Positions 23,583-52,924 of a stretch of 64,000 nt of DNA are shown piece after piece. The notes under the pieces were generated by a model. It did not search any database and had not been told where the DNA came from. It worked only from the letters and a program-made list of their open reading frames with translations. How positions within the stretch are numbered: position 1 is the stretch's first letter; every line of letters starts with the position of its first letter. The stretch is from Psammoneis japonica (taxonomy: Eukaryota). The stretch is from the NCBI GenBank assembly GCA_008632985.1, contig QPGO01000022.1, forward strand, positions 1 to 64,000, read 5' to 3'. Made by a program: the position numbers and the translations under genes.

Positions 23583-24549
23583 CTGCTCCTCTCTCCGACA
23601 AAGTTGATGTCTGACGTTTTCATCATGTTTGGAGTGGACATGGCTCCACTGGCACCATCAATGCCTTCTCCCAAACCCAAAGCTGGGCGGCAGCAGGGCA
23701 AGGGGGGGCGGGAGGGAGCAACAAGCCATGCCACTGCACCGTGCTGCAGGGCTGCTGTGTGCCCCGTCTGTGTTGAGCCTGGAGTGAGAACAAACCATGG
23801 AGAAAACAGAGCACAAACAAAACAGGTCAGATCCACAGCATGTTCAATGTGTGTGTGTGGGTTACCCAACCAGCAACAAGCCACCTCAAACAAGCTCAGT
23901 GCTGGTGCTCTGTGCTGAGAACAGTGGTGGTTGCGCCGCCGCAAAAGGGGGCCTGACAAGGAGACAGGCAGAGTCAACCACAATGATCCAGGGTCCTGTC
24001 ATGTGCCACTCTCTGGCAATGTGGACCCTTTGCACATTGTTCTTGCTTCTCCTGGAGCAGGGGTGATGGCTTTGCCATGCACACCTCTGGTGATGCGCTG
24101 CGCGCAAACAGCCCAGCACACATGAGGCAAGCTGAGTGCCGCTTCAGCGCTGCCTTGAGATCACATGCAAAGAGTGGCTGCTCTCCTTGTGCAACTCTGA
24201 GCATTTCATGCATGGGCACAAAACATTGCCACTGGGCCAGAAAAACACCTGCTCATGTGGCTGTGCAGGCCCAGGTTGATGCCCCAACGGCACTTGACAT
24301 CACAGCGGCAGGATTTGTTGCTGAGACAAACCAGAGCTCTGCACATGCACAAACATTGCAACCTGAAAGCACCTCTTCCCTGGGAGGATGACACTGCCTC
24401 AGAAGCACCACTCAAGTGGTTTCAAGCAAAAGCCCATAGAAACATGAGCTCAGGCCCCCCAGAGCTGTGTTGCAAAAGAAGAGCTGCCACCCAAATGAGC
24501 AGCAACTTGAGAGATTTTCAACCCATGGCTGGTTGGAGTTGAGGGTCAC

Positions 24550-24880
24550 TTGAACAAACTCACCAAAGTTGACAAATCCACCAAAGTTTGCAAAGTTGCC
24601 AAAGCTGGCAAAGTCACCAAAAGCTGAGACAAAATTTGCAAAATGGTCAAAGTCTCCAAAGTTGACAAAGTCACCAAAGCAACCAAAGTTGACAAAGTCA
24701 TTGAAGTCAACAACAATCATTGTGCCAAACTTGCCAAAAATGACAAAGTTCTTGCCAAAGCTGACAAAGTTGCAGAAGAAGTCCACAAATTTAAATTTGA
24801 CAAAATCAACAAACTCACCCTCAAAGTGATGAAATTGCCCAAGTTGACAAAGTTGGCAAGCTTGCCAAAGTTGACAAAAC
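24550..24880. repeat. Degenerate 9-bp minisatellite (CCAAAGTTG / ACAAAGTCA-type units)
   Basis: Visible 9-nt periodicity, which produces spurious (PKL/TKS)n ORFs. Confidence 0.85.
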
Positions 24881-24926
24881 ACCCACATCCACTGTCTAAC
24901 AACCAGCTTGCAGATTTGCTGAAGCA

Positions 24927-26870
24927 CAAAAAAAAAACAAATCTGCTTTTTAAGTGCCATCACTCCATTGTCAGCTGTGCCGATGCCGGCCAACCCACAC
25001 TTCTGGCACACTGAGCCAGTGCGGCAGAAGGAAAAAAGGGACTGGCCAGCTGGGGCATCACCAGACAGTGATGCCCTTCCAAAATAACTGGCAATGGAAT
25101 GTGTGCCACAAAGCGCAAGGTGCTTTGCTTCTTTGATGCTGGCTTCAAGGCTGGGCTTGATCATTGACACCCAGTTCATAATCTGTGACGTGCCGTGTGA
25201 CATGTGACCCTCCAACAAATCCATGAGATCTGCTCCATCCTTTGCAAGATGTTCTTGCCTCTTGTCACAAACAGCAGTGAGTTCTGCTTCTGCTGTGCAT
25301 TGTTGTGAAGATGTGTGTGAATCCAAATCATGTCTGTGAACTTGTTTGTTGTGTCTTTCCCACAGCTCCCACCACGACCACCATGCATGTGATCCGATTT
25401 GAACTGCCCACACTGGGGGAGGTTGATTTTCTTTACAACATTGCTCAGGCAAGCCTGACTCCCGTAAATGAATCTCTTGAAACGTGTTCCATGGGGAGGA
25501 ATGCCGGCCGTTAAAAATCTGTCGCCATCCAATGCTGGTCTGGGCCTGCCATGACAACCAGAGCATGGGGGGAGCGTCTGCAGCCCACATCATCTTGTCA
25601 TGGAACCACTTCTCTAAAGACAAAAGGAGGAGATCCCGAAGAGGAGGCATTGTGTCAATCTCATCACAGCACTTCCGCAAACCTTGGAGAAAGGTGCGTC
25701 TCCAGTCCTTGTGGTTGGGACATCATAGAATGTGATCTAGATCCTCCATTGGACTCTTGCAAGATCAGCAATGGTGAGGACAGACATGGTCACACCTGTG
25801 GGTTGTCTTGTTGGCAGGTGACAGCTCGTAAATCAACTTGACCGTAGATGCGTGCTGTTTGAAAAACCATTTGACAAGAGCCGCATGTGCGTCCCAATCC
25901 ATCTGTGACGTGACGGCATCGTCCCATTGGTTTCTCTCTTGCATGTGCAGCATGAGAGCGGGTGCCGTCGTTGCACACTGGACCAAGGATTTGAGACCAG
26001 CTGTCACTGCACCATCTGAAAGAGAAAAGTGAGCTTGGCAGTGTGGGAAAGGCAGGACAGCAGTGGTGTCCTCCAAGATCTGTTGTTGATGCTGGCCAGC
26101 CAACTCATCTGCACAGACATTTACTTTGACATTCAAAGGCAACAATTTGATGGAATCATGACAGTCTTGATGGCCTTTAACCCATTTAACTGGAGGCACT
26201 TGAATGGCAGAGGAGGAGTCCAACATCTCTGCAATTTCCGCAGAAGTCTGTGGCATCTCATTTGCCACGTCCCAGTCCAATGATGACACATTGGCACCAT
26301 GATGATGCATGATGTAGTCCTTGTCTTGATTGTCATGGGTGATGGGGTCTGTGGATGGACAGGAAGAATGCAGTCTCTGCAGAACCTTAACCAAGGCTTT
26401 GTTGTCACACCAATTGTCCATGCCTTGACAATGGGACACTTTGCTGTGCTCAAAGAAATGAAACAGAAACCACAGAATCGACAGAACACCGCATGCCTCT
26501 GAACAGCAAGATGAAGGTGACCTGCCAAACACAGGGCCCGCACAGTCAACCAGCGGAGCACCCTGGATTGTTGTGGTCCATCCAAAGGCAGCCTGCTGGT
26601 GGAGAACTGAGCTGTCACTGCTGGCAGTGAGATGATCAGTCAGCAATGAATCAATCAGAGAGTTGATGGGCACATGAAAAATCATGTCTCTAAATGGAGC
26701 TGCTTCCCACCTGGGCAGTGCTGGAGATGGTCCAGGAAAAAATCTGGGAGAGGGAGTGGCATTTCAAGGGCAAGTCCCACGCAATGCGGTGTAAATTGCC
26801 AGTGGCCCTGATGTGAAGTGCACATTTTGATGGGGAATGATTCATCAGACGGCAATGGAACAGTCTCTAA
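24927..26870 (-). mobile_element. 3' fragment of an Ambal-like non-LTR retrotransposon (RNase H region, C-terminus and 3' end), hypermutated
   Basis: 'AAFGW...CAGPVFG', 'WCDNKALV', 'KWVKGHQD' and 'NVCADELA'; collinear with about 48120-50055; both copies end GCACTTAAAAA followed by a T-run. Confidence 0.85.
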
Positions 26871-26871
26871 G

Positions 26872-28120
26872 AGATTCTGCTGCGATCGCCTGTCACAGCT
26901 ACATTGACCGTGTGCTTCGCTCACACGGATGGTTGCACCCCGCCTCGGATGAATCTGTTTCAGATTTTATGGCTGCTCCTGTGCCTGTTGACTCCATCTC
27001 CAAATTATGTTCAGACATTGGTCCAGAGGAAGGAACCCCGGAATTTGCTGAACTGGCAGAAGCCCAAGGTTTTGGGCATCGAAATCTCCTTGGAGAACTC
27101 CTGTGTGCTCACGTCATTTGTCACCTGGACATCGGACATGCTGTCACTGCCCTTTCAAAGTTTGCATTGCACCTGGCTCCAGTTCACTGCCAGGCTCTGA
27201 AAGGTGTTGCAAAGCATCTCCGGCGCATGAAACACTGGGGCATCAACCATCGCAAGCCCTCCAAGGACACCAGTTTGCCCCCTTGTCCGTTTGAACAACT
27301 TGAAGCGGACCCATCCCTGCCTCCCTTCCCTGCTCCTGATTCATTGATGCATTTGCGGGCTTTTTTGGATGCGGCCTGTGGGAATGATTTGCGCAACTGC
27401 CGCCCCACTGCAGGACATGCTTGCGTCTTGGTGGGCGCTGCCATTGCATGCCGATGTAAGACACAGACGGTGACTGCCACACCAGCTCAACGGAGGCGGA
27501 GTTTTGTGCTGCCAGCGCCACTGCAAAGTTGGTTCTGCACCTTCGTTTGGTTCCATGTGAGCTTGGATTCCCTCAAGACTCACCAACTCCCTTGCACATT
27601 GACAATGAGTCGGCCATCAAGATCGTCAACAACCGCATCCTGACTGAGCGTGCTTGCCACATTGACATCCAGTGGTTTGCTCTCCAAGACTGGAAGGAGG
27701 CTGGCCACATTGTCACACGACATGTCCCTGGCATTGTCAACCCAAGCAATGACCTCACCAAGGCTCTTGGGTTGATGCTCCACGCCCACCATGCCCGTCG
27801 GATGATGGAACACTGCCATTGACACTCCTCCTGGCATCTGCTGAATTGCCCTTTTTTACATTGTGTTGTCTGACTCTTTTTTGAATCATCCAGTTTGCCC
27901 CATGTTCCCTTCTCTCTTTTGAGACTGTCTTCCCTTTTTTTGTGTTTCGTGATCTACATTGTCCAGATTCGAGACATGCCAGATCAGGGGAGGGTGTCAG
28001 CTTGCCCTGTGCAGAATGCATGGTCAGACTGTGTGCGGATGATGGGTCAGACTCTTTTTAGACAGTCGAGATGATCTCTCTGGGATCTTCTCTCACTCTT
28101 TCTTGCTGGTGCACGTGTCA
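26872..28120 (+). mobile_element. Ty1/Copia relic: RT C-terminus, RNase H, PPT (27986-27994) and start of 3' LTR (TG at 27995; right end uncertain)
   Basis: 'HRNLLGELLCAHVICHLDIGHAV', 'STEAEF', 'DNESAIKI', 'HIDIQWFALQDW' and 'NPSNDLTKAL'; AGGGGAGGG followed by TGTCAG. Confidence 0.88.
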
Positions 28121-28289
28121 TTCACTGTTGCCAGTTTGCAGGGAGCTCTTTAGCTTGTCACTCTTACCACATGGGCATTCTGTCAGGTTATGAGACCAAT
28201 CAGCACCAACAAGATGCTTTGCCATGCCCACCAATGCGGCCGAGTTGCTGATTTCAGGAGCCACGTGATCAATTGCATCCACCACCACA

Positions 28290-28701
28290 TCTCTGACTGT
28301 GCCACATCTCTGATTGCAGTTTCTTCGACAGACACCAATCACTCCAAAATGGGCAACAGCGGAAGTGCCTGTGTGCCCTTGAGCAGCAACAGCACAAGCT
28401 TTTTCAACTCACTTGCCAGTTCCAACAAGAGCTCATCTTCATGGGGTTGTTGTCATTTCATTGCAATCATGGCAAGACAGGGCATCAACTTTTGGAGAGC
28501 ATCATTGGCTCCCATGCTGTGCGCCACGACTGCGAAGTGCTTCACAGCATCCACCTTGGCTTTGGTCTGTCCTGTTTCGATTTGAGACTTGAACAAATCA
28601 AAAGAAGTCATGTCCTCCAACTCATCCACACCCTGAGGCATGGACTGTGCCAGAGCAATGGATGGAGTTGGAGAATCTGACACATCTGAAGATGATGACA
28701 T
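28290..28701 (-). pseudogene. 5' fragment of PP2A scaffold subunit A (HEAT repeats)
   Basis: 'AHSMGANDALQKLMPCL', 'EDELLLELASEL' and 'LLPILE*LVSVEETAIRD' resemble the PR65/A N-terminus (DEVLLALAEQL; LE.LA.VEETVVRD); in-frame stops present. Confidence 0.7.
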
Positions 28702-30043
28702 GGTTGTTGTTGCTTTGTGTTGTTGCTGTGAGAGCAAGAACGGTGTGTTGCATGTTGTCAGCGACTGTTGGCATCAGTTGCACGTGATTTCTGCATGAGC
28801 GTGACATCACATTCGTGATTGGGGCGGTCTTTTGAAGAATCAATGGACAGACGAATGCAATGACAAGCTTCAGATGCTGACAAAGTGCAACATTCCGGGT
28901 TCACAATGCCCTCATGTGAACATTTCACAATGAAATGACCACTGACGACAACCAGGTGGTGTCTGCCCTTTGCTTCCATTCTGCCGGCATCTGCCGGCAT
29001 CTATGGTGTCTTCACAACATTTCACGGCAACTGTGACAGGAAGCAGGGAAAAAAGGAGACGAGTGAAAAAAGGTGGCAATGTCCATTGAATTGGACAACA
29101 GGCAAAGCAGCCCAGTTTGTCTCCTTTCTCTACGTAGAGTGAGCATGGTTCAGTCCAGAGTTTAGTGTGCCTTTGTTGAGAACAAAAGCAAAGTTTAGTT
29201 TGACTTCTCAGAGCAGACTTTGTTGCTAGAATTTATTCTGCCTCTAGCTTCACCTGAAATTGTGATGCACCACAATCTTTTTCTTTCTTGTTTACAGCAT
29301 GTGTGGCATCTGGCTCAATCTCTTTTCTCGTCATGAAATGTGGGGACACAAAAGCAGTCCTCACATGCCGGTGTTCTCATTTCTTGTTTTCAAACAAAAC
29401 AAAACTCTTCCTTGTCCTTGTGCACAGCACAAAAACTCTGTTTGGCAGCCTCGATGGCTTTCTGAGCCTTTGTCTTGAAGGACACAATCTTGCCGTGGTG
29501 CTTGAGGTCCTTGAAAAAGACGTGGGCCAAATCCGTTTGGAGGAGACGCCATGCCATGCAGGCTTCCACGTGCGAGGCCACGTGTGAATGCATCTCTTGA
29601 ATCAAGGAACGTGGTGTGACATCTGCTTGTTCTTCTGGAGCTGATTCCCAAACCAACTCTGACAATTCCAGAGACACATCCAACAAATCTCTCAAGGTTT
29701 GTTCGGACGCGGTTTGTGCCTTGGTCATTTTGGCAAAGAGCTTGATTGCGGCCGGCTCATTGGCAGGAGACGGGACACTGAAATGAACTTCCTTTTTGGC
29801 AATGCTGCAATGGCTGCTTCCCATTGGCGTCATGAACCTCACAGCGGTTGTTGCCGTTGGATTTGTGCTCTGCCTTGTGGATCTGTCCAACATGACAATG
29901 GCCTTTTTCTTCAAACTCGAGAAAGGTCCCACTGCAAGGGAAGGCTTTGCTTCAGGTGCATCATCAGTGTTCTCATTCAAGTCGACAGTGGCCAAGCAAT
30001 GGCGAGAAAAGGACTGTGCTGACAAGAACCACAGATGAACGTT

Positions 30044-30404
30044 TGTGGGAAAGTGGCCAGAATTCTGGGATTCGTCTGCACTTTCAGCGATTAAAAGCTG
30101 CAAATGTGACACAACAATCAACCAGCAACTTTGTTGTGCCAAAAGTTGAGAGGTGACAATCAGCACATTAGAAAGATTGTGAGCAGTTTTGTGAGCAGTT
30201 TTATGAGCAGATGCAGCTGCCAACCAAAAGAAACACGAAGTTAAACAAGCGCGAAGCCAGGAACAAACATCGCATTCGTGACTCGGCTTCCGCGGGATTC
30301 GAGACTGAGCATCGCACACGGGGTTCGAATCTTGGATCTCTGATTTGAATCGTGGAGGTCCGATGTTGTTGTGTAAAACATGCAAATGTGAGTGCATTGT
30401 CACA
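30044..30404 (-). repeat. 3' LTR of the Copia element
   Basis: TG...CA termini; aligns to 40321-40666; adjacent to the PPT. Confidence 0.9.
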
Positions 30405-32388
30405 CTCCCTTCAACAATGTTGGGTGGAATGATGACTCAAAAACGTCTTGCCACTTGAGGAGCGACTCCCTGTGATTGACAAAGAGATTCTGTGGCAGAG
30501 GTTTGGCAAAAATGTCTGCAATCTGATCCGCCGCATCAATTGGTGGGATTGATTTGAGACCTTTGCAAACATGGTCTTTAAAGTGGTGGAGAGTGAGGAT
30601 GAAGTGTTTTGTCCAAGGACGCATCTTGGGCAATCACGCGATCTCCAGTGCTCTGGAATTGTCTTCAAAAGCCTTGCAGTGTGTGACTGGTGTCTCTGAA
30701 GGGACATTGTGACCGTGACTCATAAATTCTTGAATGAGGTTCACAATCGGGATGGCGCTTCGAAGACTTTCTGAAAGAGCAACAAATTCAGCTTCAGCAG
30801 TGCTGAGCATGATCTGAGTCTGCAGCTTGGACGTCCAGACAATCTGACATCCTGCGCAGGTGATGACAAACCCAGTTCAAGATTTGGAAGTTCCGACGTC
30901 ATCGGGCACTGTCAGCTTGTTCCAATTGCCCACAAAGTCTGTGTCAGCGTGAACTTCAAGGGACTTGTCCATTGAGGGCTGCAGTGTGATGCCTTCAGTT
31001 CTGGTTGACCTAGGTGCTCACAGAGCCACAGCATTGTGCCTTGCGTGCAGGTGCCCCCGCGCGAACGTCGATTTTTTTCTGCAGTCGCTCCGCTCACCGC
31101 AGCGCACAAAAAAAGCACAAAAACGATGCCATGACAAACAAACTCAGTCAAATGAGAGCCAGCGGCAGCTTGTCGTGCTCCCACGTCCCTTGGGCAATGG
31201 CTCCAAGTTGCCATGATGACATTGTGTCACAAGATTCATCAACAGTGTCTCCAGAGCAGGACCCATCAAGAGAACGGACCAAAGTTCTGACGCACACCGC
31301 AACCAAGCCGACACCACCGTCAATCCCTGCACCCGATCACATTCCTGTGCTACCTCAGAAGCCACTGCTGCCTCCAAAACAGAACAAGCTCACAAGAAGG
31401 ACTTGCTGGGCACTGTCACAAAGCCAAGGGGAAAGAAGGTTGCCCCCTGCACAAATGCAGTCGTGCTGGCGAACAAGCGCATTGAAAAGTTGGAGAAGAC
31501 TTTGGTGGAAAAGCACAACAGCCATGGACACTTGGAGGAAGCAGCGGCCACATCTGTTGATTCCATGCACAACAATGTGAAGTCCATGCACAGCAGTCTC
31601 TTGTCAAAATGGCCCAGTCAAAGGCAACGCTTCAAAACAAGTTCTACGAAAAAGAACACCGCGGTTGAGCAGTCACGACGAGACAAGAAGGAGCTGGAGA
31701 GCATGGAAAAGGATTTGAAGAGAAAAAATTGCCAAATCGAGTCATTGAAACAGCAGCTTGTAGCAGCCAAAGAATCCAACAGGAAGATCAAGAGCTCCAG
31801 CAACAATGCCTTGCAGGACGACGTGCATGAAAGGAAGAAACAAGCGAGCCTGTTGCGTGTCGAAGAATTCAGGGTAAAAGAGCAAATCAAAGTTGATTCA
31901 AAAAAGCAGGAGAAGAAGAATGCTTTAGATGCAAAGAAGGAATGCATGCAATCACTGCATGCTTCCAATGGGCAGTTCGTTGCGAGCATCACATCATTGC
32001 TTTGCTGCATTCACGCATCTTTCACATCTTTAACATCTTTTTGATTTCTTTGACTCCACTCACTGGCCTTTTCTCTTCTCCCTCAAAAAGCTTGGCTCCG
32101 GGTGTCCAATGCCACATGGTCAAAGGCAGTCTGATGATTCCCATTGCCAAGAACAAACAAGGTGTCATGGTCGATCCCGCAATTGATGCCACAGCAGCAG
32201 TGTGTGGTCACTCGAGAGGACACAGGAGCAGAGGCCGCAGCCGCTCTTGCCACAGTCCAAGCTCTGGCAACAGTGAGAGTGACCACAGTGATTTCCATCA
32301 CTGCCACAATTGTTCTTGCTCTTGCTGCCATGGCAGTCACTCTCACAGTTGCTCTTGCTCTCACCGCCGTCACAGCATTTCTCGCCAA

Positions 32389-32568
32389 GGTGAGAGCAGT
32401 GGCTCCAGCGACAGGGAGCACAGTCGTTCTTGCAGTGTCTCTCACCATGGTGAGAGCACTCGCGCCAGTGACAGGGAGCACAGTTGCTCTGACAGTGTCT
32501 CTCACCGTGGTGAGAGCACTCGCGCCAGTGATGGGGAATGCAGTTGCTCTGACAGTGTCTCTCTCCAC
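32389..32568. repeat. Three 60-bp tandem repeats within a Ser/Arg/His-rich cargo ORF of the transposon
   Basis: Units beginning GGTGAGAGCA at 32389, 32449 and 32509. Confidence 0.9.
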
Positions 32569-33488
32569 AATCAAAGTTGGTCTGGCCGAAGCATGGGTGA
32601 TCAAGAAGAGAGGCACCGTGTCACTGCTTCCAGTGGCTGCAAAGATGATCGCCACTGCAACCAAAACCAACCTCCCAGCTCCTCCTCCCATGATTGTCGC
32701 AGCTCCCATGGATGCGATGGAGGGTGTGATGGAGGACATGAGGAAGAGCCCATGCACTCTGATGAAAACAGCATGCAGGAGAAGGAGAACACCCATCCTG
32801 ACGGCAAGGAGAATTCCTTTCAAAATGGTGTGGGGCCACATTCCTTCCCCAGTCCTCCAAAGAATCGTCCTGCATTGACTGCACCATCCTTCTCATTGTC
32901 CAACAAGTCTGAAAGTTTGCAAGTCTGCAAGGATGTTGCTTCGAACAATGCTTCTGTTGGACGCGAAGGCATGGATGTTTGAAGACGATTTCTGCAGATG
33001 TTGAAACTCCTGCGTGAACCCACTTGATGCTTTTGAAACCAATCAAGACTCTCTGTGCTGGCAGGTGACTGTGCTTGCATCTTGTCACCATTGTGCTGTT
33101 CAGGTGTCTCAATCTAGACCCAACTCCGTCAGTTGTAGATCTGTCACTGAAAATTGCATTGTCCCTTGTGCTTTCTCGTGCAATGGTGCTCCGCAAAAAG
33201 TTAGTTTCATGTTCAAATGCCTGGCACCATGAACAACACATGCCCACTCTGTTCTCGCAAGACATTGTTTTAAAGGATGGGAAACCGACGATGCTCACAT
33301 CTTGCGCATTTTGTGGCTCTCGCCGGGGCAAAAGTCTAACTGCCACATTTTTTGGATCCAACATCGCAGCGGCAAAGTGGCACCGGGATCTTGTACACAT
33401 CCTCCGCATCCGAATGATTGGCTAAAAAACTTTTTGCCATTTGCGACTCTGCATCATGTGCCTGGGGCCTGGAAGTTTCAATTGCATC

Positions 33489-34687
33489 TCAGTCTGTTGT
33501 GGGGCATTCTACAGCAGAGCATTCCATTGTGGGACAAGCTTGAGATGCATGTCCACATGCTCTGCACATGCAGAAGACTTGGCCATGCGCAATTTGGGAC
33601 AACACGTCATGGGCAGCACAGGCGGTGGAATGCTCAGTGCACGAGTGGAGCCTGCGGATCGGATGGTGCTTGAGCTGTGTCACAAGTTGACGCCACACAA
33701 GTTCTGCAGGGTTCCATTCAGGGGTCCTTGTTGGAAGAAACAAAACAAAGATGCCATGCTCCATCCACAGCCATTCTTCAAGAACTGCATTTTCGCCATG
33801 CACGTGGTGGGCTGCATCATCTAGAACAAGGATGTCACTGCCTCTGAAAAAGCCCCAATGCACTGCATGCTCAATCTCCATTGCAAACTGTTCGCATCAT
33901 TCGGCTTGTTGTGGATCTGGCAATGCACTGGGCAGGTCCTTGTGTCGATGCCGCAAAAGCCAATGACGGGGCATGTGTTGCGAAAATCAGAGGATGTGAA
34001 GGATGGTGGGACTTCCCTCGTTAGTGCATTTTGCCTTGTCCTTTGGCAATGCACTTCTGAACCTTTCAGCAGCTTCTCATCTCCGCATTTGACCCTCCAC
34101 AGATCATTCTTGGCGACAACCATTGTGAACTCACGCGCTCGTAGGATGTTGTCGAGTTTGAATTTATCACAGGGAATGAGATTTGGCTTGCAAAGTTTCC
34201 CGCTGATTGGAAATGCATGATTCCAGAATCTGCTGATGGCAGCATTCAAAACCACTGCTCCTGTGAGGTTGTGCAGATTCTCCCAACAGTTGGACAGCGA
34301 GCAACTTGGCTTGTCCAGATGCAGAATCAGAAGGACAAAAGCATCTGGACTGTCAATTGTGTTGATGCCTGGACCATGCATTTGTTTCTGGTGAATCTTT
34401 TGCGGGTGAAGCACTTGGCCGCAACAGTCAAGTTCTCGTTCCACTTTGACTGCAAATTTGTGGTCAACCCTGCAAACCTGAGCGACTTCTGTTAGATTCA
34501 TCCTGCCACTCTCTGACGTGTCTTGTGGCAATTGACAGACCCTCTGAACTTCAATCTTCTTCTCAACACCATGTGCCCTCCCACGTTGATGCATTCCACC
34601 ATTGTCATTGACAGCAAGTCCGCACTGGGCTGCAGTGGTGCAATCGATGTTGTTGGCTATTTTGTTTTTCACGACACAATGTCTCAT
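33489..34687 (-). pseudogene. DDE_3 (Tc1/IS630-like) transposase, frameshifted
   Basis: N-terminal HTH-like region, 'GDEK', 'VLDDAAHH' and 'FLPTRTPEWNPAELVW' (compare LPxYSPxLNPIE). Confidence 0.85.
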
Positions 34688-37600
34688 TTACTTACAGCCT
34701 GCTCAAGCCACGCAATGTCCCATGCAATGCTGAATCACCAGAACAGATGGGTGCAACTGCAAGGGAGGAAGATGGAGATGTGACAAAGAATGAATTGCGC
34801 AGAAAAGTGCAGCATTTTGGTGACATCCAAGCACAACAAATCCTGGCAGATTTCTCAAGTGTCTCTTCAACTCTTTGCAAGACCGTCAAGTGACACAATC
34901 TCAGGGACTGGCACAGCGTTTCTGACTGGTCAAACTGTCATGACAATCGTCCAATTACTTGCAATCAACAACAAGATGCCATCCGGAGTTGTTTTTTGGG
35001 TTTTTCAAGCAAGCGCGTGTCGGAGGGAGTCAAAAAAATTCTTGTGCATCGCTCAGGGGCACCTGCACACAAGGCACAATGCGGCTTCACCGTGAGAAAC
35101 CTTGGGATTGGATGAAAAGTGTGCGACTTGGTGCACACGTGAGCAATGTCCGGTCAAGTGCTTTTCTCCAGAAAATTGAGCTTGCCGATGATGGATTGGT
35201 GACAAAAGCTCCCTTGACAAGCAGGCTCACTCACATGCCTGTGGAGGATCTTGGAGGAAGGAGCAGGAGCAGACTTGTCTGGAGCTCTCTTGGGAACATT
35301 GGCCATCTCCAGAATCTGATTGATGAGGTGAGGTTGGGCAAGTTTCATTCTGCCATCTGGTGGCATCTTGACGTTGACACCAAGGCAATCGTCCAGAGTG
35401 CCTTGATCATCAATGTCAAAATTCTCATTTCTGATGTCCTGCATCACCTTGTCAACAGCAGACTTGTCAGGGGATGCAAAGACACCGTCATCAACACAAT
35501 GAATGAAAATGACATTGTTGCAAAAATGGAGGCACTCATCAACCGCCAATTGCACAAAACCAATTCTTGACAATCCATCATGCAAGTGTTCTTGCCATGC
35601 TCTCCCTGCTTGCTTCTGTCCACATGAGTTCTTGAGCAATTTCAGAACGTGTGTCTCACCATTGCCATGTTTTGTTTCAATTCCTGCAGGCAACTCCATG
35701 CACATGTCACATTCAACATCGGCATGCGGGTGCGCCAGAATGAAGTCAACTTGGTGTGCGTGCCACTTCTTGAGAATGGCCATGATCAGCAGGAGCTGGA
35801 CAGTGAACCAGAAGACCACAGCAGAGTGGGTCTGGAAGCAGTTGACTGCATGCTCTTGCTTTCCGCCGTGCACATTGAGTCGGGACTTCCACTCATGTGC
35901 TGCTTGAGTTTTGATGTCTCTTTTGCACTTCATGGACCACACTGAAGGGAGAACATCAACATCGTCAGGTGCATCCTCTCTTGGAATAAGTGTCCAATGT
36001 TTTCTCTCAATGTCATCATTGACTTCCTTAACACAGGCCTTGACAAACTCGTCTACATCAGGTTCACGCATGGCCTGGTCAAAGTGCAAGGCATCGGGGT
36101 CCTAACTTGCCAGAAAAGAGACAGGTGAGTCCACATCATCTTGCAGTTTGCAATCATCCTCGTGCACTGCGTCACAATGTGCCTCTGCTTCTGCATTGCA
36201 GGAGACAATGCCTTGAGCCCATTGCAATTGACTCTCGCGCATCCTTTTGGTCAGGCATTGTTGTCGGCCGGACCTGCTGGTGCTGGGGTGACCCGTGGCA
36301 CGCTGTGGTTCAGATGGTGCATCAGAATCATCTGGAGGCGTGTGTGGCATCTCATCATCCGGTTGGGCATCATCAAATGAGTCATCAGTGGTTGATGTGT
36401 CGCTGGGATGCAGCAGCTGAGGAGGAATGTCGAGATTTGGCTCAGGTGGTTCCGATGCAGCAGGGATTGATTCCTCAACTGGTGCGTTGCTTGATCTCCC
36501 AAAGATGTTGAAAGCAATCCTTGTCTTGAGTTGTCTGAAACCTGCAACACCTTGCCATTGTGAGAATGTAGGAGGATTCCCAGCAGAAGGATTGACGGTC
36601 TCAAAGAAGTCGTCAAATTGAATGTGGAATTGCGGTGATGCGAGTCCGGTCTGCAAGTTGAGGACCAAGGCAACTGAACCTGCGTGTCTGGTTGATGGTC
36701 CCAAATTTATTCCTGACCTTGCTCTTGGGTCCCACTTGGGTGCTCTACCTCCTCCCTGCAACCGGTTGTGCAAGGCGTAGACGGGACAGCCAAAGGTGTG
36801 ATGCTGCTTGAGGTTGGGCTGGACCTTGATGGATGAGAACCGTTCCAGCAGAGAGGAACCATCCTCATGATTCGGCAAGTGATTCCTGATCTTGTTTGAG
36901 TTCCTGAGAGCACTTGGCCACAAGTTCAGCTCAATGGCTGTTGGCCACCTCACTTTTGCATGCAGGAGTTGCTTCCAAGCTTGCTCTTGGAGGTCCCTTG
37001 TTCGTTTCTCCGCAATGCCATTTTGGAAGTGGGCGTTGACTCCACAACATGATGTTGTTTGCTGTTGCTTCTCGACATCTCGCATGAAAGCATTGTCAGC
37101 AAATCTCCCATTGCAAGCATGGCAGTGTCGAATGTGGACGTGCATCCTGAGAGCAAAAGCCTCGAAAGAGTGCTTGGCTTCGAGCGTCTTGGCTGAGGTG
37201 AGTCCTCTTTGCAGACACATGTGTCCCAATCCGCTGAAGTGATCAACAAATGTTGTTGCTGCTTGACACCTTTGTTTTGCAGGTCTCCCTTTGAGCTGTG
37301 GAATCAGTCCAGGAGTGGGACTTTTGAGCTGGTCGACAGATGCGGCCTCTCCAGGCAAAGTTGCCAAGTGGATTTGTCTGTTCCTCTTGGACTTTGAGCG
37401 CCATGGTCATTTTGTCATGGCACCGCACAGGCAACCGGCACATTTTGGGTTGTGTGCCTTTGTAAGGCGTCTCGGCAGGACACCCAGGGCGGCCAATGGC
37501 TTCATCATTTTGAATGACATGTGGCCCAGGTGGTGATGTCAATGCAACAATTCACCCTGGTCATCTGTGGCAGCAAGGGCGTCATCATTTGGCATGATGT

Positions 37601-40320
37601 TGATGGGTTCCAACAAGTCCTGCTGTGCCTCCGGTGTCGTGAAATCCCTCAGGTTTTCCTTGTCTGAGTCTGAACAACTTGTTTTGTCTGTTGGCTCAAA
37701 TGAGACAGGAACATCTGCATCAGTGGGGTTGCGTGTGTCTTGCATCTCAGAAGGATGTGTCTCAGATGGACTTCTGAAGACGTCTTTGTCAATTGCAGCC
37801 TTGTCATCATTTGCAATGCTCTCGTCGTCTGGTGGTGTGATGTGAGCTTGGCAGGCCATGTGTTCGACAGTTTCAACATCGGTTTGTTCTTCGACAGTGG
37901 CTGCAAAGGTCCGGCATTTGTTGGAACCGGGTGCGGAGTGCATCTTGGCAACATTGGAGTTGGCAGACCATGGAATCAGGTGATGATGCTTGCGCTGATC
38001 CCACATGAGCAATGGTCCGTCATCCCCAGTCCAGGATGCGGTTCCGTGAGGCTCTGGCATGTGGTCATCAGCTTGCTGGCTCCATTGCTGTGGGCAGAGA
38101 AGACAGTGAGGCAAGTCCGGCACGAGCAGCGCGTCTCAAATTTTGATGTCATGTGCTCGTCCCATGTCGTCCTCAATTGCCCACTGCACTGTCCCTTCTC
38201 CCTTGACACGCAAGTGACCCTTGACACCAAGGACCACCTTGTTTGTCTTTATGATGGGACCAACAAAGTGTGCCTCGTTGTTGGACATGGTGCAGGAAGA
38301 GTGTGAGTCAACACCAATCACGAATGAGTCCGAATCACAAGTGGGCTTGGTTCACTCGGGACGGCATGGAGTGGTTGAGTTGCATGCTCTGACCATGTGA
38401 CAATGGGCAATGATGCATTGAGCCTTCTTGGTGGCCACTCTGGAGTGGTGACCTGGCCTTGTCAATGTGTGACATCGTGCGCAGCACCCAGTTGTTGGCC
38501 GTCGCTGGCAAGTCTCAACTTGTCTTGTGCCTGGTTCAGCCAGGATGTGTGAGATGACCCACTCACCCAGTGTCATTGTGGCATGTGACAGGTGCTTGCA
38601 CTTTTCTAAAGGAAGGGACAGCATCATGAACAGCAGCATGATCCAAATTGGTGCCGCACATTTCATGATGCCAGCAACCGCTGTCAGGAACACTGACACA
38701 GTGACGGCCATCTGCAAGACAGCAGCAGTGTCAGAATGAACCTGCAGATCAGTCACTCTTGATCCACTTTGTTTGGGATGGTGGAGACAGCACTTGCAAA
38801 GGAGACTTTCTTGTCTGACGCATCGTTGGCAGGAGCTGACTGTTGCTTGCGGAGTCTGCAGCCTTGGTTGCCCGGATCATCAGGTGAGTGAATGACCCAA
38901 GCAGTGTGATGTGGGCATCAGCGACAGTTGTGGTTGTTGACGTGTTTGTGGTGGCACTGATGTCCATTGACCGTCTTCTTAGGAGCGTCCTCCTTGGGCA
39001 GGACTTTCTTCCAGGCTTTGTCTGCCTTCTGTTTCTGATGTGGAGTGGTCTTGGTCTTCCTTGACCGTGTGCTTCTCCACTCAGTTGAACCAGCCTTGGC
39101 CTTCAGAGCCTTGGACAGCTGAAGATTCTGATCCTTGATGGAGTCTACCTTGGCTTTGAGTGCGACAATTTGCTCTTTAGCCGGCAACAGTGCTCCCCAT
39201 TTCTTCTCGCACTTGAGGTTAGTGTGCTTGTGCAGTGCCAGTGTCATGATCTGGGTTGGCAAAAAATCCTCACCGTCATCGCACCTGTCCTTGTGCAACA
39301 TGATGCACTTGACGAAGACCTTGTCAGCAGCAGTGGTGCATCCTTTGAAAAGATTCATGATGAGGTCGTTGCACTGCTCTCCTCTGGCTAGGAGTCCATC
39401 AACGTTGAGCTTGGCACACTTGTTGAACTCCTCGATGTCCAAGCCAACAGCTGCTGTGCACGTGTCCAGGCTTGACAGGTTCTTGCGGAAGCAGTTGGTG
39501 GCAGAGCGTGTGTCAACAATGGCCTTCTGTGTAAGTGGCTTGAAGAAGAGTGTGCCGATTTGATTTCCATCAATCGTGCAGGAATCAATCTCAGCCAGCA
39601 TCTTGTCTCTTGCTTCTTCTGCAAGGGATTGAGATGTTGCCTCGACCCATCTGCACATTGTTCTGTGCTTGTCGCGCAGGCAGATTTGCAAAGGTGTTCA
39701 CGTGAGTTCTCACATCTTGAAGGGTGAGCAGTCTACACTCGGAGATGAGATCTCTGGGAGCGCCATTTGCGTCAGGAATGGCAAACATGTTCCCTGCCCC
39801 TGTCCTCCATCCTGCCTTGGCAGCTTGTTGACTGAGCATCTCACAAAACCGTTTGAGGCCTTCTGAGTTGCCGTTAAACTCGTGAGGCAATGGACAGGCA
39901 GCAGTGTTCCAAAGTTTGACGCCTTGTGATGTCCCGCAGTCAATGAAATTGTTGGGACGGTGTTGACCTGGGGTTGACACGAGGATCAAGAGTGCCAGTG
40001 ATGGACCAGCTGATGGAACACCGCCTGGACCTCCTGGTGTGGTGGAGGAGATCCTCCTCCTCCACCTCCTCCTGCAGGCACACCACCAGGGATGACCTTG
40101 GGGAGCACAGGAGCAGCTGGAGCGGCTGCAGGAGCAGCAGGTGCTGCAGCAGGTGCTGCTGCTGGAGCAGCAGCAGCAGCAGGTGCTGCAGCAGGAGCTG
40201 CAACAGAGGCAGCCAGAGCAGCCGCAGTTTGTGTCTGCATGACCACAGTGGCAGCAAAGTAAAGTGGAATCGAGAGCTTAAGATCGATTGACTTAACTTG
40301 TAGATTGCACAGAGGAAGTG

Positions 40321-40666
40321 TGTGGGAAAGTAGCCGGAATTCTAGGATTTGTCTGCACTTTCAGTGATTAAAAGCTGCAATTGCGACACAACAATCAATC
40401 AGCAACTTTGTTGCACCAAAAGTTGAGAGGTGATGATCAGTGCACTAGAAAGGTTGTGAGCAGTTTTGTGAGCAGATGCAGCTGCAAACTAAAAGAAACG
40501 CAAAGTTAAACAAGCACAAAGCCAGGAACAAACATCGCATTTGTGACTCGGCTTCCGCGGATTCGAGACTGAGCATCGCACACGGGGTTCGAATCTTGGA
40601 TCTCTGATTTGAATCGTGGAGGTCCAACGTTGTTGTAAAACATGCAAATGTGGATGTGTTGTCACA
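40321..40666 (-). repeat. 5' LTR of the Copia element
   Basis: TG...CA termini; aligns to 30044-30404. Confidence 0.9.
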
Positions 40667-41379
40667 CGTTGTTCTTTGAGAAAGATGAAAGATGTGCATG
40701 TGCTGCTGCAACCCGATTGGTGCATTGCTTTGCAACAGAATTTTACACCATCTCACCTGGTTTGGAGTCACGACAAAGCCATGAGTGGCAGCAGCCATGA
40801 AGGCGAGAAGCATGAGGTTCAAGTGGACCATCGTGGTGTCAAGAAAAATTGGGTGAAAAAAGATGCAGCATGTGTTGACATCGCCAAGATTTTTGAGCTG
40901 ATGTTTGGACGTCACTTCCAGTGTGTTTTCTGTGACCACGGCGACTGTGTGCAGCACCAGAATGTTGCTGACGTCACATGTTGAAGCATTGGCTTTGAGC
41001 ATTTTCAAAAAAGCTTCATGCAAAGACAAATGAATGTGCTCTCAAAGATGTTCGCGTGACAACTCCGACTGCTCCGACCGACCCGACCCATCACAATCCG
41101 TCATCACAAACATCATCATCTCAAGGTTGCGATGGTTGAAAGCAAAGGATCAACATGCTCTCTTTGCATTCTTTGCGCACACCATGATGAAGAGCTGCTG
41201 GTGGTGGTGTGTTTTCTTCTTCTTGGGCGGGCGGGTGAGGTGGGCACACACGTGTGAGCTGAGAGTCTCTGACTTTTCAACCAACACAATGCACCACTTT
41301 GCTCTTTCTTTCTTGTCAGGTTCTGCTGCTTGACCTGGATTTTTTGCTTTTTCCTCTGAAGCAGCATCTCTTTTCAGGG

Positions 41380-41545
41380 CCCAGCCACCAAACAGGGTGG
41401 GCTTGTTTTGCAAAATGGCACAGGCAGACGCCAACCGTGGGTTGAAAGCATCGCTGTTTTTTTGTGACATCCAACCTTGATTGCCCCTCAACCTTCACAA
41501 ATCATTCTTGATGCATCGAGTCATGGCATCGCCGTTTGCTTCATC
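41380..41545 (-). pseudogene. Hypermutated fragment of the kelch-repeat gene
   Basis: 'NPRLASACAILQNKPTLFGGW'; aligns to about 55180-55340. Confidence 0.8.
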
Positions 41546-42446
41546 AAAGGCCCATTTCCATGAACTGTCTTGTGGTCAGACCAATGGACATTGTTGTAGA
41601 TGGCGTTTGTGAGTGCCCCCGCACACACATTCATTTGTGATGAATCATGGTCATTTGACACAAATCACACTGATTTGCCACAAACAGTCATGATTGGAAA
41701 TGAGTGAATGTCCACACCAACCAACAAACAATGTCTGTTGGTTCGAACAAAATGTCGCACACTTCCAACAAATGTCCATGGGCTCAAAGCCAGGGATGTG
41801 CATCCAACCAGCACAGTGAAATTCAAGAAGTTTGCACCCACACAAAATGTTCAAGTGGCCATCTAAAGTGCGGCTTCTGCAATGTAAGAATGCTTGAGTT
41901 GGACAACAACAAAATTGTGATCATGGGTTTTCATCTGCCAAACCACCATCAGCACCAGCTTGCTGACCTTGGCACAGCTCACCATGTGGGGTCTCCCCCT
42001 TGTCACCCAAGTCGTGAAGTCCTCCCCCACTTGCTTTCCGTGGCTGCCTGAAATCATTCTGCACAAATCTTCCCATCAACCAAGTTGCTCACTTGTGGTG
42101 TTGCATTGGATCTCCATGACTGGCTCCTTGAAGAACTTGTTGGTGCTCTTGGCAACCATCCCCTCCCTTGCTCTTCCCCTTGGTGCCCTGCATTGTCTCT
42201 TCCCATGCCCTCCTTTGCCGGGTGCAAGTTGCTTGGCACAAAGCACTTGAGTCATCTTGCACACTTTCTCTTCTTTGCAACAGCCTCTTTTTGCATGAGC
42301 CCCTTGTTGGCGATGCTCTCAAGCTCGTTCGCAACACCCATCAGAGCTGGGAGTCACTCTCTTGTCTTGTCCCACCCCTGTGTCATTGGAAATGGCTGTG
42401 CTGCTGGTGTGAGTTTTGAATCTTGTGCAACATCAATTCTCTAATG

Positions 42447-42762
42447 AAACTTGTGGCAAAGCTTGTCTTTGTGCAGCACGCCTGTTTTGTCCAGTCATTT
42501 TGTGCCAAGAGTGTGGCACTCAGAAAAGCTTCTTCTTTGACATGAAATCTCTTGCCTTGATGATGTCTCTGCCAGCCTTTTGACCATCGGCCATTTGCAA
42601 CATCAATCCCTCAGCAAAACTTGCTGCAAAACTTGTTCTTGTGCAGCATGCCTGTTTTGTTGCACAAAGCTTGAGTGCAATGCTCAGAAAAGCCTTGTTT
42701 TTGACACGATCTCTTGCCTTGATGATGATGTCTCTGTGCCAGCCTTTTGATCATTGGCCATC
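42447..42762. repeat. Diverged tandem duplication, about 170-bp period
   Basis: 42447-42597 aligns to 42616-42762. Confidence 0.75.
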
Positions 42763-43244
42763 CACTTGCTCAGATTGGTCTGCTGTCTCTGAGGCGCAGT
42801 TGCAACAACTCTTTGTTGTTTTTTGTGTCCTGTGTTTGCCTGCACTTGCTGTGGCCACACTGCTTTGCATGCTGTTGCAAGCCAGCCCTCCCTTTTTTGT
42901 GTTGTCTCTTGAGTCTTGCAGAGCAATGGTTGTCTTTTTTCCCCCTTTGTGTTTTTTCACTTGCCTGAAAAGGGCACTTCCCCTGTGTTTTTTTTATTGT
43001 CCTGCGGAGTGTCACAAAGCTGTTCAAGGACAGTGCAAAGAAGCATCAAAAACATGCATGACTCCGATTCTTCACTGCACTGAGGGAATGAATTTCCACA
43101 TTGGTGACTGCATTCATGACATCAAAGGGATTGTGGACATCCTCCCTGCCAAGCATCAAACCGGTTCTGAACAAAAGAATGTTTTGGTGATTGAGCAAAT
43201 GTCATAAAAAAGCACAACAAATTCTGTTAGAAGAACTTCCAGGC

Positions 43245-46200
43245 TGGGTTGACGACCCAACTCCCGATGCAGTCCCCCTTTGTGGACAGTCCTCAACCCA
43301 CTGTCCAAGGCCTTTTGGATGAAATGCCAGACACGGCTAAATCTGTTACATTGGCCAGCATTCGCAGCTGGGGCTCCGTTGACTTGTCAGACATCTCACC
43401 AGATGGCTCGGCTTTGCCTCCTCCTCCACCAGCAACCCCCAGCATTCCTCCAGTGCCTCCTGTTGTTGGCGGCCATCAGTTCTCAACACATGCCCAGGTG
43501 CTCGAGTTGTCTGCAGGCACTGCTGCTCCTCCCAATGTCGGCACGTCCGATTTGACCCCTCAAGTTAGTGAGATTAATCGTCTTTGCCATGAACTTCTCC
43601 AAATGCCCCAAGAACAGGATGCCAAGTTGCAATGCATCAAGGAACAACACCGCCAGGACCAGGACGAATGAGAGAAGGCAATGGAAGAGAAGCATAAATT
43701 GTCCTTGCTCCAAATCCAACAGAGTCACCAACAGCAGCTCAACGCATTGATGGGGCAGTTCCGGGAGTTTCTGGAAGAGCAGTTCCCACCTGCCAATCAA
43801 GATTCAGTGTCCTCTCCAGCCCAAAAGAAACCAAGCATTTCCGCTCCAGCGGGGTCCTCACAGAAGAACCTCCCTCTGACACGACCATGACTGACGTTGC
43901 TCAAGATGCAATGGATTTTCCACAGGGCAGACAAAGTCGTCTTCTCCACCTGTCCCATGCAACGCAGAGGCAGCCTCTGATAAAAAGTCTTCCTTCGAGG
44001 AAGCAAGGCCTCAACATGAGTGAGGATTCTTCCTCACAGTCAACAAGAACTGCTGCCAGGCAGCACCCCTGTCCAGATGCACAACCCACCACCCCTGCAG
44101 CTGCTCAAAAATGGAATGATCTCCTTGATGGTTGCCAACATGGCTTGCCACCTCAAACAATTGACTGCTCCTTGTCAAACAGCAATGACGCCATCGGAGA
44201 CCCTCCAGGTCCAAAGAATCCCACAGCCACTCGTCTCTTTGCATTTAACGTGAATGGTTGCTCCTGCAACTTGTCAGGTGGAGACTTCAACAAACATTGT
44301 CAGGTCACCAATGAAACTCAATCAGACATTGTTGACATTTCAGAAATGTGCTTGGATGCAACACAACCCCAAGTCGCTCAACATTCAGCATCCTCCATCC
44401 CATTCACCACCCCACACAAGCCGGGTGGCATTGCCATCATCTCGTGTAATTCCATTTCATCCCAATGCCGCACCAAGCAAATGGACCCATTGGGCTGTTG
44501 GTCTATTCAGGTGTTTGACAGCAGCCAAGGAAAACAGGCAATGTTTGTCTCTTGCCACCGTGTGTGTCGGGACAATGCGTCTTCTGCCGGAAAAACAACA
44601 GCATGCACTCAACAAGTCAATTTTCTCCATCAGCAAGGACGAGCTCACCCTGAACCGAGACGAGCATTTTGCACATTCTGGAAATTTTTCTGGACAAGCC
44701 AAATGGAGAAGTTTTCCTTTTCAGGGATTTCAATGCTGTCTTTCACAATGACACAGACCCGTCAGCTTGCATGGCTCAGCGCTTCAAGTTGTTTGACATC
44801 ATGTTTTGCCACATGCAACACATGGATTTTGCCACCTGTCTTCGAGGGTCCAAATGCCCCCTTGACTGCACACTGGCCACCCCTGGAGCTCTAGATTTGG
44901 TTCTCCAATGTGGATGCAAACCTTTCGGCTGCAGAATGTTGTCGGACCACCAAGCCTGCTTTGTTGATTTTGACACTCAACTGCTGTTTGGTGATCCTTC
45001 TGTTGAGATTCCACGGTTTGCTCACCGTCACCTTCAAGCATCCTCTCCCAAACACGTGACCACGTGCCTCGAGTCCATTGGTCCCATGTTGGATGGTTGA
45101 AATGTCTTGGCACAAATGATCGATCTGTTAGAATCCTCCGAGCCTGACCACCACCCAGCGGAGCGCCTGGACAGAGACATGACACAATTCTGCATTGCCG
45201 CTGCCAAACATTGCGGTCAACATCAAGAACCAGCCTGGTTGCTGAAGTCAGCCAATCTTCACAGGAAGGTGTTTGTCCTTTCCTGTCTCCTGTCTGTGTT
45301 CAAGAACAGAATCAACTTTGTTGATGCCATCATGCATGAGCAGCACAAGTTGGATGCATCTTTCCTCCTTCCTTCCACTGGGGATGCATGTCAGCAGGCC
45401 CTTTGGAAAGCACAGGCTGAATGTGAGAAAGCAGCCAGGGACAGTTTGCATCACCAAGAGAAGGAGCGGGACGCTTGCATTGCTGAACTTGACTTGGAAG
45501 GTGCTCCCACATCCAAGAAAGAGGCGAGGATGCTCCGCAACCTGAGGTGTGCAGAGGAAACTGACCGAGTGTTCCGGAAGATTGATGCCTTTGCAGACAA
45601 AGATGGATCCAGCATGAACAATATTCAAGTTCCCGAGAACCCCCAAGAGAATCCTAAAACCTGTGACAATTGGATTGCTGTCAATGCACCATCAGATGTC
45701 ATGGCAGCTTTGACAGCACGCAATGGGAAACACTTTGGACAAGCACATGGCACCCCGTGGACAGTTCCTCCTTTGTCAATGGACTTGGGACACGAAGGAA
45801 ACACGATTGTGGCAGATTTGATTCTGGATGGCGAGTGTAAAAAGATTGGCATGTCAGAAGCCACTGCCATGCTGATTAAACACCTGCAACGCCGGACTCA
45901 AGTGTCAGTGTCCAATTTTCTGATGGCTGTCAATCTCCAAGGAAAATTCAAGGCATGGTCAGAATCCACATCCACCTCCATCAAGTCTGGTCTTCATCTC
46001 GGCCACTGGAAAGCCATGCACTCAAAACATCTGCACTCATCTGCAACGGACTCTTTCAGCAATCCTGCTGAACAACGCGAGCAATTAGACCAGATGCAAG
46101 AGACTCTCTGGTCCATCCAACTCAACTTGTTGAATTGTGCCCTCAAGTGGGGTCGTTCATGTGATCAGTGGCAAGATGTCGTGAACATCATGATTTTTAA

Positions 46201-49200: not shown

Positions 49201-50070
49201 ACGTCCTCATCACTGCCTTGCCTGTGAACTCCCCATGGAGGATCAAGACCACATTCACAGGTGTCCAGACAACAAGCCTTGGAGAAGGAAGTTCGACATT
49301 GTGACAAGACAGACACAATGCCCCCTTTGCGTGAAGTTCAACATTGTGACAAGACAGACACAATGCCCCCTTTGCATGACTTTCTCCTCCAGATGTTAGA
49401 GGCCTGGTTCCAGGGTGCTGTGGCACATGACATGGACACACCTCCACTCCTTCGTACACTGTGGCACAAGCAGACTGACACACAGGATGAACGGGAGATT
49501 CTCTAAGTTGTGGAATGTCCACCAAGAGATGCACCTTTGAGAAACCAGAAAGTTGGAGCAACATCGCTGGGAAAATAGCCCCCCTCTGGTGTGGTCAGTT
49601 CAAATTGGCACTTGCATTTGGAAAGCATGGTGGGAGCTTTGGGAACAGCACAATGCGGCCATGCATGGACATGATGCAGATTCCTGGAAGTCTTCACTGC
49701 AGCGTCAGGCGGAAGCAGAACTTATGGCCATTTACAATGAATGCCAGGAGTGTCTTGCACGTGACCACGATGCACTGTTGGAGTCAGTGGAAGAACACAT
49801 GAGTTGCTCAACATCATGAATCCTAAATTGGGTTGCAATGATTAAACCACGCCTGAAAGACAGCTTGAAAAAGGCAAAGCACTCCCCGCTTTGCGGCACT
49901 TGCTTGATTGCAAGTTATTTTGGTGGGGCGTCACCTTCTGGTGACGCCCATCCCGGCCAGTCACGGACTGCTTCTGCCGCACCTTACGGTGTGCTGGAAG
50001 TGTGGGTCAGCCAGCGCCAGCCTGGCTGGCAAAGGACTGACAGCACTTAAAAATTGTTTTTTTTTTTTCC
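43245..50070 (+). mobile_element. Long Ambal-like non-LTR retrotransposon (ORF1 remnant; APE endonuclease, RT, RNase H), dead and hypermutated
   Basis: APE start 'RLFAFNVNG' and 'SDHQA'; RT 'GLHLGHWKA', 'HGTGQGSGNSP', 'GHVDD'; RNase H 'ATFGW', 'RAEVHG', 'WVKGHQD', 'NAQADRIA'. 5' boundary uncertain; clade call is from memory of diatom LINEs. Confidence 0.88.
49291..49379. repeat. 45-bp tandem duplication inside the LINE
   Basis: GTTC(G/A)ACATTGTGACAAGACAGACACAATGCCCCCTTTGC(G/A)TGA occurs twice; the copies differ at CG versus CA sites. Confidence 0.9.
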
Positions 50071-52912: not shown

Positions 52913-52924
52913 ACATTTCTTTCA

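Follow-up and report, generated by a model that had tools for sequence, protein, structure and literature searches.

In a 64,000-nt stretch of the Psammoneis japonica contig QPGO01000022.1 (positions 1 to 64,000; hereafter, the window), a DNA transposon of the Tc1/mariner/IS630 type interrupts a degenerate Ty1/Copia retrotransposon. Elements of this superfamily integrate at TA and duplicate it, yet the transposon is now flanked by CA on its left and TG on its right. The most abundant uninterrupted version of the same Copia sequence in a public sequencing run reads a single TA at the insertion point. It is therefore highly probable that the transposon inserted at a TA target within Copia, and that both copies of this dinucleotide were later converted, one to CA and the other to TG, by a regional TpA-specific process acting on chromosomal DNA.

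A Tc1/mariner/IS630-type transposon nested in a Copia element

The features on which the argument rests are listed below (o/e, observed-to-expected ratio; TIR, terminal inverted repeat; LTR, long terminal repeat).

31034..35079, minus strand: Tc1/mariner/IS630-type DNA transposon, 4,046 bp, TA o/e 0.09
31034..31057, plus strand: left TIR, 24 bp, matching the reverse complement of 35056-35079 at 23/24 positions
35056..35079, minus strand: right TIR, 24 bp, pairing with the left TIR
31032..31033: left flank of the transposon, where the target-site duplication has become CA (plus-strand T->C)
35080..35081: right flank of the transposon, where the target-site duplication has become TG (plus-strand A->G)
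33489..34687, minus strand: degraded transposase gene with overlapping frames 33821-34687 and 33489-33896, a frameshift and no Tyr
30030..40667, minus strand: degenerate host Ty1/Copia element, interrupted at 31032-35081, with frameshifts and a stop at 35154-35156
30030-30405 (376 bp) and 40308-40667, minus strand: Copia LTRs, 87.5% identical

The TIRs (TTGTGCCTTGYGTGCAGGTGCCCC) differ at a sole position, where CG faces TG, and blastn paired them over 33 bp at 90.9% identity (31032-64 vs 35081-49). Among the inverted repeats of the window, this pair stands out clearly as the best; a rough calculation put the chance expectation for a 24-nt inverted pair with at most one mismatch, 1-8 kb apart, at ~1e-4 per window. 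No other clear TIR element that could serve as a replicate was found in the window. Re-reading of the sequence bore out the original prediction that the 24-bp TIRs are flanked by CA (31032-31033) and TG (35080-35081), and measurement of the interior (23 TA in 4,046 bp) substantiated its statement that the transposon itself is TA-depleted.

Frame 33489-33896 matches the Pfam domain DDE_3 (E 2.2e-10), and the degraded transposase retains the motifs GDEK, LVLDDA, and EWNPAELVW. A full HMMER search returned 394 transposase relatives at E <= 1e-3, with GDEK, LVLDNAxIH, and EWNPxELVW, as well as DNAxxH and NPxExxW motifs, in the aligned set; DDE_3 was present in all seven full-length relatives scanned. 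The intact 375-aa relative P0121, with catalytic spacing D-86-D-38-E, shares 56% and 63% identity with the two window frames. Having a DDE_3 transposase with its catalytic triad (in a gene broken by a frameshift), TIRs, and an empty site that reads TA, from which the CA and TG flanks are each one transition away, the nested element is, as judged from its sequence, a member of the Tc1/mariner/IS630 superfamily. It resembles this superfamily in the DDE_3 domain with DE, DNAxxH, and NPxExxW motifs, in its short TIRs and in its TA target, and differs from typical members in length, in 2.4 kb devoid of a recognizable domain, and in a duplication that is no longer TA. Specifically, no recognizable domain was detected in the ~2.4 kb between 31058 and 33488. 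An imperfect internal repeat lies within this segment (32372-32447 vs 32492-32567, 74%).

In the host element, 35154-36101 matches RVT_2 (E 1.6e-26), and the open reading frame (ORF) upstream of it, 36102-37406, gave a retroviral SH3-like match just below the cut-off (26.7 vs 27 bits). Relatives of this Copia carry gag_pre-integrase and RVT_2 domains, and we rated the RVT_2 domain, the upstream integrase, and the flanking LTRs that characterize Ty1/Copia as all in place. The TGA stop at 35154-35156 falls where relatives have Arg within a TRPDIA motif, which fits a CGA->TGA change. The 5-bp duplication made by Copia itself was not definable from the LTR ends.

The abundant uninterrupted Copia carries TA at the insertion point

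On the minus strand of Copia, the peptide ...SNPKVSHGEA is followed by G and a further two nucleotides, after which LWLCEHL begins. In a codon comparison, 117 of the 120 Copia relatives listed matched the peptide before this junction. All 117 have one residue at the junction (V in 88, I in 22, L in 4, A in 2, and D in 1) and the same spacing as the window to the following (K/R)YL. One residue and equal spacing mean that the target contributes exactly 2 nt, which excludes longer duplications; indeed, the two sides mismatch in candidate 5- or 8-bp duplications at the transposon ends. The spacing in the relatives thus agrees with the earlier proposal that excision keeping 2 bp restores the Copia frame.

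We then turned to uninterrupted copies. Of the 31-mers sampled from 30000-36000, 47% occur in the k-mer contigs of the public run X1, and 163 of these contigs match the region at >=99%. Alignment of X1 contigs to the window at >=80% likeness revealed two that join 31011 directly to 35082, without the insert. The letters at the joint are TAGGTACTTACAGAGCCATAGTA in one (word depth 523) and CAGGCACTCACAGAGCCATGGCA in the other (depth 37), as compared with TAGGTGCTCACAGAGCCACAGCA at window positions 31011-31033. At the insertion point, between ...CCATAG and CGGCTTC..., the abundant form shows TA once, which yields a GTA (Val) codon, while the rarer form has CA. The 23 letters of the abundant form are clearly homologous to the window: comparison scored 18 identities, and all five differences oppose TA to CA or TG. 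Out of the five TA in the abundant form, the window retains one, the remainder being TG (one) and CA (three), and the rarer form retains none. Where the window is frameshifted, the abundant form carries an additional base that brings Copia back into frame; it therefore resembles the intact lineage, and the corresponding 1-nt deletion in the window (31011-31012) explains one of the frameshifts of this Copia copy. The GTA codon anticipated by the original prediction for uninterrupted copies was thus found in the abundant form, with CA instead in the rarer one. A TA target needs only one transition per side; had the target been CA or TG, one of the sides would have had to change twice.

The entire 4-kb transposon is repetitive in X1 and almost uncovered in runs X2 and X3. 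Contigs of X2 (same sample, high depth) skip 35964-36058, 36122-36200, and 37195-37281; these pieces of 77-93 nt have GT..AG ends on the plus strand, lie in the integrase region of the minus-strand Copia, and may be intron-like gaps or deletions in a related family.

Direction, specificity, and sequence context of the TpA changes

The direction of change was read from a weak Kelch-like repeat (below Pfam cut-offs) with copies on both sides of a block border.

54230..55811: unmutated reference copy, inside the unaffected island
51351..52901, with a further piece at 41380-41542: hypermutated copies, inside the depleted block

Five pairwise alignments were scored, with the island copy as reference against the block copies. 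The 56 site-by-copy cells with TA in the island read CA (34), TG (17), CG (2), CC (1), or TA (2) in the block copies; TA had therefore turned into CA or TG in 51 cells, against a single case of the reverse. These changes were strongly dependent on the neighboring base: T>C occurred at 37 of the 56 T preceding A but at 7-8% of those before other bases, and A>G at 19 of the 56 A following T as compared with 6-9% in other contexts. CG cells were also affected, with 32 of 54 being CA or TG in the block copies. As the island copy is normal and the block copies 1-3 kb away are hypermutated, the process does not hit every copy of a duplicated sequence. TA->CA outnumbered TA->TG on the plus strand (34 vs 17), and both bases changed in the two TA->CG cells.

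The transposase told the same story at the protein level. The 16 Tyr residues of P0121 align in the window to C (8), H (5), N (1), F (1), and S (1), and the two transposase frames (288 and 135 aa) contain no Tyr at all, versus 3-4.7% in seven relatives. Together, the polarized TA changes and the Tyr replacements indicate that the TA-poor state is derived and that the interior of the DNA transposon was affected.

The Copia LTRs were compared as well. Over 360 aligned bases they show 31 differences (27 transitions), of which 22 lie in pairs of pyrimidine-purine (YR) dinucleotides; three sites oppose TA to CA or TG, and CA-versus-TG discordances number four, against ~1.9 expected from CpG decay alone.

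Survival of TA was further dependent on the flanking bases. We calculated survival ratios as surviving TA per base in 36 kb of blocks (23751-54000 and 58251-64000) relative to 27 kb of normal DNA (1-23500 and 54251-58000); these ratios are approximate, since the baseline is gene-rich DNA and not the repeats' own ancestors.

TTAA: 0.52 (33 vs 48)
CTAA/TTAG: 0.33
GTAA/TTAC: 0.26
CTAG: 0.22
CTAC/GTAG: 0.14
ATAA/TTAT: 0.14
ATAG/CTAT: 0.05
GTAC: 0.02 (2 vs 79)
ATAT: 0.008 (1 vs 91)
ATAC/GTAT: 0 (0 vs 149)

RTAY was almost gone and YTAR was best preserved in the blocks, which suggests a recognition motif wider than TpA. After integration, the junction TAs would have stood in GTAT (left) and ATAC (right), so their loss is expected because this is the class with no survivors. 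A partial strand tendency was also evident (RTAR->CA 12:4, YTAY->TG 10:4). A strict strand rule, with A hit only in TAY, was dropped, as the 23-nt empty-site comparison shows exceptions to it.

TpA depletion is confined to repeat blocks with sharp borders

Dinucleotide composition divides the window into alternating domains.

1-23.5 kb: genes; TA o/e 0.54, CG o/e 1.02, CA and TG ~1.1
23600..54050: TA- and CG-depleted repeat block with the transposon; TA o/e 0.04-0.13, CA and TG ~1.7
54.25-58 kb: unaffected island; TA o/e 0.64, CG o/e 1.10, CA and TG ~1.1
58150..64000: second depleted block; TA o/e 0.03-0.09, CG o/e 0.10-0.30
~23.6-54.1 kb and 58.1-64 kb: both depleted blocks scored in 2-kb windows; TA o/e 0.03-0.13, CG o/e 0.10-0.62, CA and TG ~1.6-1.85

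The borders, at ~23.6, 54.1, and 58.1 kb, are sharp within ~100-300 bp: TA is dense through 23575 and occurs beyond that point about once per 300-600 bp. Depletion runs unbroken across element borders for 30 kb and ends sharply at genes. The transposon and the host Copia are alike in this respect, with a TA o/e of 0.09 each and a CG o/e of 0.46-0.50. The changes thus consist of TpA-confined transitions on both strands, within delimited repeat domains of integrated chromosomal DNA. Collectively, these data show a TpA-specific transition process that is limited to repeat domains, acts on chromosomal DNA, and is accompanied by CpG decay.

The depleted parts of 23751-64000 contain 78 TAA and 52 TAG, as opposed to 917 TGA. 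The rarity of TAA and TAG leaves long open frames in all six frames of dead repeats, with translations lacking Tyr; false frames of this kind probably account for the ORFs found within the transposon at 31220-32982. The most extreme part of the window is 60001-64000 (TA o/e 0.03-0.05, CG o/e 0.10-0.15), which presumably holds the oldest or most exposed repeats. Between the two blocks, the 4-kb island (54100-58100) is normal in TA and CG content; it includes frames of weak Kelch-like similarity that score beneath the Pfam cut-offs, and an (AT)-rich palindrome spans 55804-55984. The organism is diatom-like: the best named matches to a tubulin-cofactor-E gene of the window came from Thalassiosira, Discostella, Skeletonema, and Cylindrotheca and shared 47-53% identity with it, none being closer.

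Discussion

A target-site duplication arises by chromosomal DNA repair at integration, and never in RNA, cDNA, or an excised transposon. Since the duplication was made in chromosomal DNA, at least its two changes occurred in situ and not in RNA or cDNA; and since its two copies differ (CA vs TG), they changed after integration. The original prediction had both TAs mutating after insertion, with which the TA of the empty site, the degraded transposon gene, the polarized paralogues, and the sharp block borders all agree. Its argument against ADAR editing or reverse transcriptase error holds for the two changes in the duplication; it does not extend to Copia's own mutations, to which an RNA or cDNA stage may have contributed.

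The sequence of events would be as follows. A Tc1/mariner/IS630-type transposon would have integrated at the TA of a GTA (Val) codon in Copia, duplicating it. A TpA-specific process would then have acted on the chromosomal DNA of the silenced repeat block, changing T to C, or A to G on the other strand, and so turning the left TA into CA and the right one into TG, with ordinary CpG decay proceeding alongside in the same block. Because the target TA, in a highly mutable GTAC flank, was still intact at integration, this Copia copy probably acquired most of its mutations only after the transposon had arrived. We infer that an enzyme is responsible and that its action is targeted; a DNA adenine deaminase guided to silent chromatin would be one example.

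Several points weigh against this account. Tc1/mariner elements are usually 1.3-2.4 kb long, and 4.05 kb is long for the superfamily. No second copy of the TIR family was seen with its flanks among the contig alignments listed; a metagenome scan with degenerate TIRs returned a single locus on a GC-rich unrelated contig, judged a chance match. The TA preference of this particular family therefore rests on superfamily membership and on the empty site. The latter is bridged by just two contigs, whose shorter side spans 27 letters where 30-31 is the advised minimum, and which derive from one sample, possibly the assembly's own source; moreover, the sequencing platform of X1 is absent from its record. 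Some reference sites among the 56 polarized cells were counted for two block copies. Finally, the differences between the LTRs were rejected as stand-alone proof of in-situ mutation, being indecisive.

Could the two flanks have originated otherwise? CpG decay is active in the block, both elements have a CG o/e of about half, and the sole TIR mismatch is itself CG versus TG. A duplication that was originally CG, decaying by 5-methylcytosine deamination to CA on the left and TG on the right, would thus leave the observed dinucleotides, and the resulting GCG (Ala) codon is tolerable, Ala being found in 2 of the 117 relatives. Nevertheless, 88 of these relatives have Val, the superfamily targets TA, and, decisively, the abundant uninterrupted Copia reads TA at this site, for which reason we give a CG origin almost no credence. 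CA and TG are also reverse-complementary and extend the inverted repeat, beyond which a weak outward inverted similarity continues (76 nt, 71%), so that they might be the element's own termini (26-bp TIRs), with no 2-bp duplication or a different one. This is very unlikely: the empty site has exactly two nucleotides between the same flanks, contradicting the proviso in the original prediction that CA...TG might be true termini beside another duplication; the protein spacing needs two target nucleotides, which Copia would otherwise lack; and the 5- or 8-bp candidates are mismatched.

The remaining alternatives concern not the target but the stage at which the letters changed. Had Copia and the nested transposon been retrotransposed as a unit, the changes might have been made in RNA or cDNA by editing or reverse transcriptase error. 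The LTR differences taken alone are compatible with a contribution at the cDNA stage, and A->G with a preference for 5' U resembles ADAR-type editing, as discussed in a preprint on Bigelowiella natans (bioRxiv 10.64898/2026.01.13.699255). On the other hand, a non-retroelement Kelch-like repeat is changed in the block and unchanged in the island 1-3 kb away, depletion is continuous over 30 kb across element borders and stops at genes, and the two LTRs differ at TA-versus-CA/TG sites. ADAR is, to our knowledge, confined to animals. We hence regard a change at the RNA or cDNA stage as highly unlikely. An artefact is extremely unlikely as well. A base-caller reading TA and CG as CA or TG at modified bases of silent repeats would explain why both palindromic dinucleotides are lost together, in repeats only and with sharp borders, and the unrecorded platform of X1 leaves room for it. 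However, the X1 k-mer contigs reproduce 47% of the 31-mers sampled and include 163 that match at >=99%, X1 carries yet another TA-poor paralogue beside a TA-rich one, the TA-poor copies also have frameshifts, a 1-nt deletion, transversions, and 12.5% LTR divergence, and the choice of CA or TG at the same site differs among paralogues.

Insertion at TA followed by a TpA-specific process in chromosomal DNA can be set against known systems. The fungal repeat-induced point mutation (RIP) is likewise a dinucleotide-specific mutational decay of chromosomal repeats with domain-like borders. It was rejected, as its direction is opposite: RIP changes C to T, mostly CpA to TpA, and so creates TA, whereas TA is destroyed in the window (51 of 56 cells versus one reverse). 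Besides, RIP affects both copies of a duplication, while the process in the window spares the island copy. Diatom transposons are CpG-methylated, and the CpG decay expected of methylated transposons co-occurs in the block (CG o/e 0.1-0.6) with the same products, CA and TG, but it can neither remove TA nor explain the duplication, the empty site being TA. ADAR hyper-editing and APOBEC mutagenesis share with the window deaminase-type transitions with a neighbor preference, the 5' U before an edited A resembling TpA. Their substrates are RNA, or cDNA that has yet to integrate, and the duplication of a DNA transposon cannot be edited beforehand; ADAR-type RNA editing carried into DNA was accordingly rejected, as both this duplication and a non-retroelement repeat were changed.

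The closest parallel comes from the chlorarachniophyte B. natans, for which Mettrop et al. report TpA hypermutation of integrated viral DNA (bioRxiv 10.64898/2026.01.13.699255). Two integrated viral regions received 231 of the 302 new mutations, all but one of them at TpA, and the authors propose an ADAT2-like DNA adenine deaminase. Both cases involve almost exclusively TpA->TpG/CpA changes, made in situ on chromosomal DNA in domains of foreign DNA or repeats, and both leave the same long-term trace of TpA depletion with CpA and TpG enrichment. In B. natans, DDE endonuclease and reverse transcriptase domains are over-represented among the TpA-poor coding sequences, much as the window has a transposase and Copia. 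They differ in that the process was caught live in mutation-accumulation lines of a rhizarian alga, whereas ours is deduced from sequence in a diatom-like stramenopile; in that depletion in B. natans is modest and concerns mainly two viral insertions (Rho TpA 0.45 in a giant-virus region), as opposed to near saturation in the window (o/e 0.03-0.13); and in that transposons and a gene-fragment copy are affected in the window, with accompanying CpG decay. The window also shows a strong flank effect, with RTAY lost and YTAR spared. In a full-text literature search, which left most subscription-journal papers outside its range, the TpA->CpA/TpG signature was found only in the B. natans preprint and in no diatom report. 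We rate the window as the same process in another major lineage, near saturation on transposons.

We put forward, tentatively and with slightly more doubt than conviction, that diatom-like algae possess a dedicated genome defense in which silent repeats are marked and their TpA converted to TpG/CpA to near-exhaustion, RTAY being preferred. Such a defense would be a mirror image of fungal RIP; its enzyme would probably be either a DNA adenine deaminase or one that modifies thymine, in both cases coupled to heterochromatin. By removing TAA and TAG stops and all Tyr codons, TpA loss makes dead repeats display false open frames and evade domain searches, and it inflates LTR-based age estimates. 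The changed target-site duplication provides a clean natural experiment in that it reveals a TpA-destroying process acting on DNA in place. Its near-saturated signature in transposons of a diatom-like stramenopile suggests a widespread, unrecognized genome defense or mutational bias; if a defense is indeed shared with the chlorarachniophyte case, it would be ancient and spread widely across the SAR supergroup.

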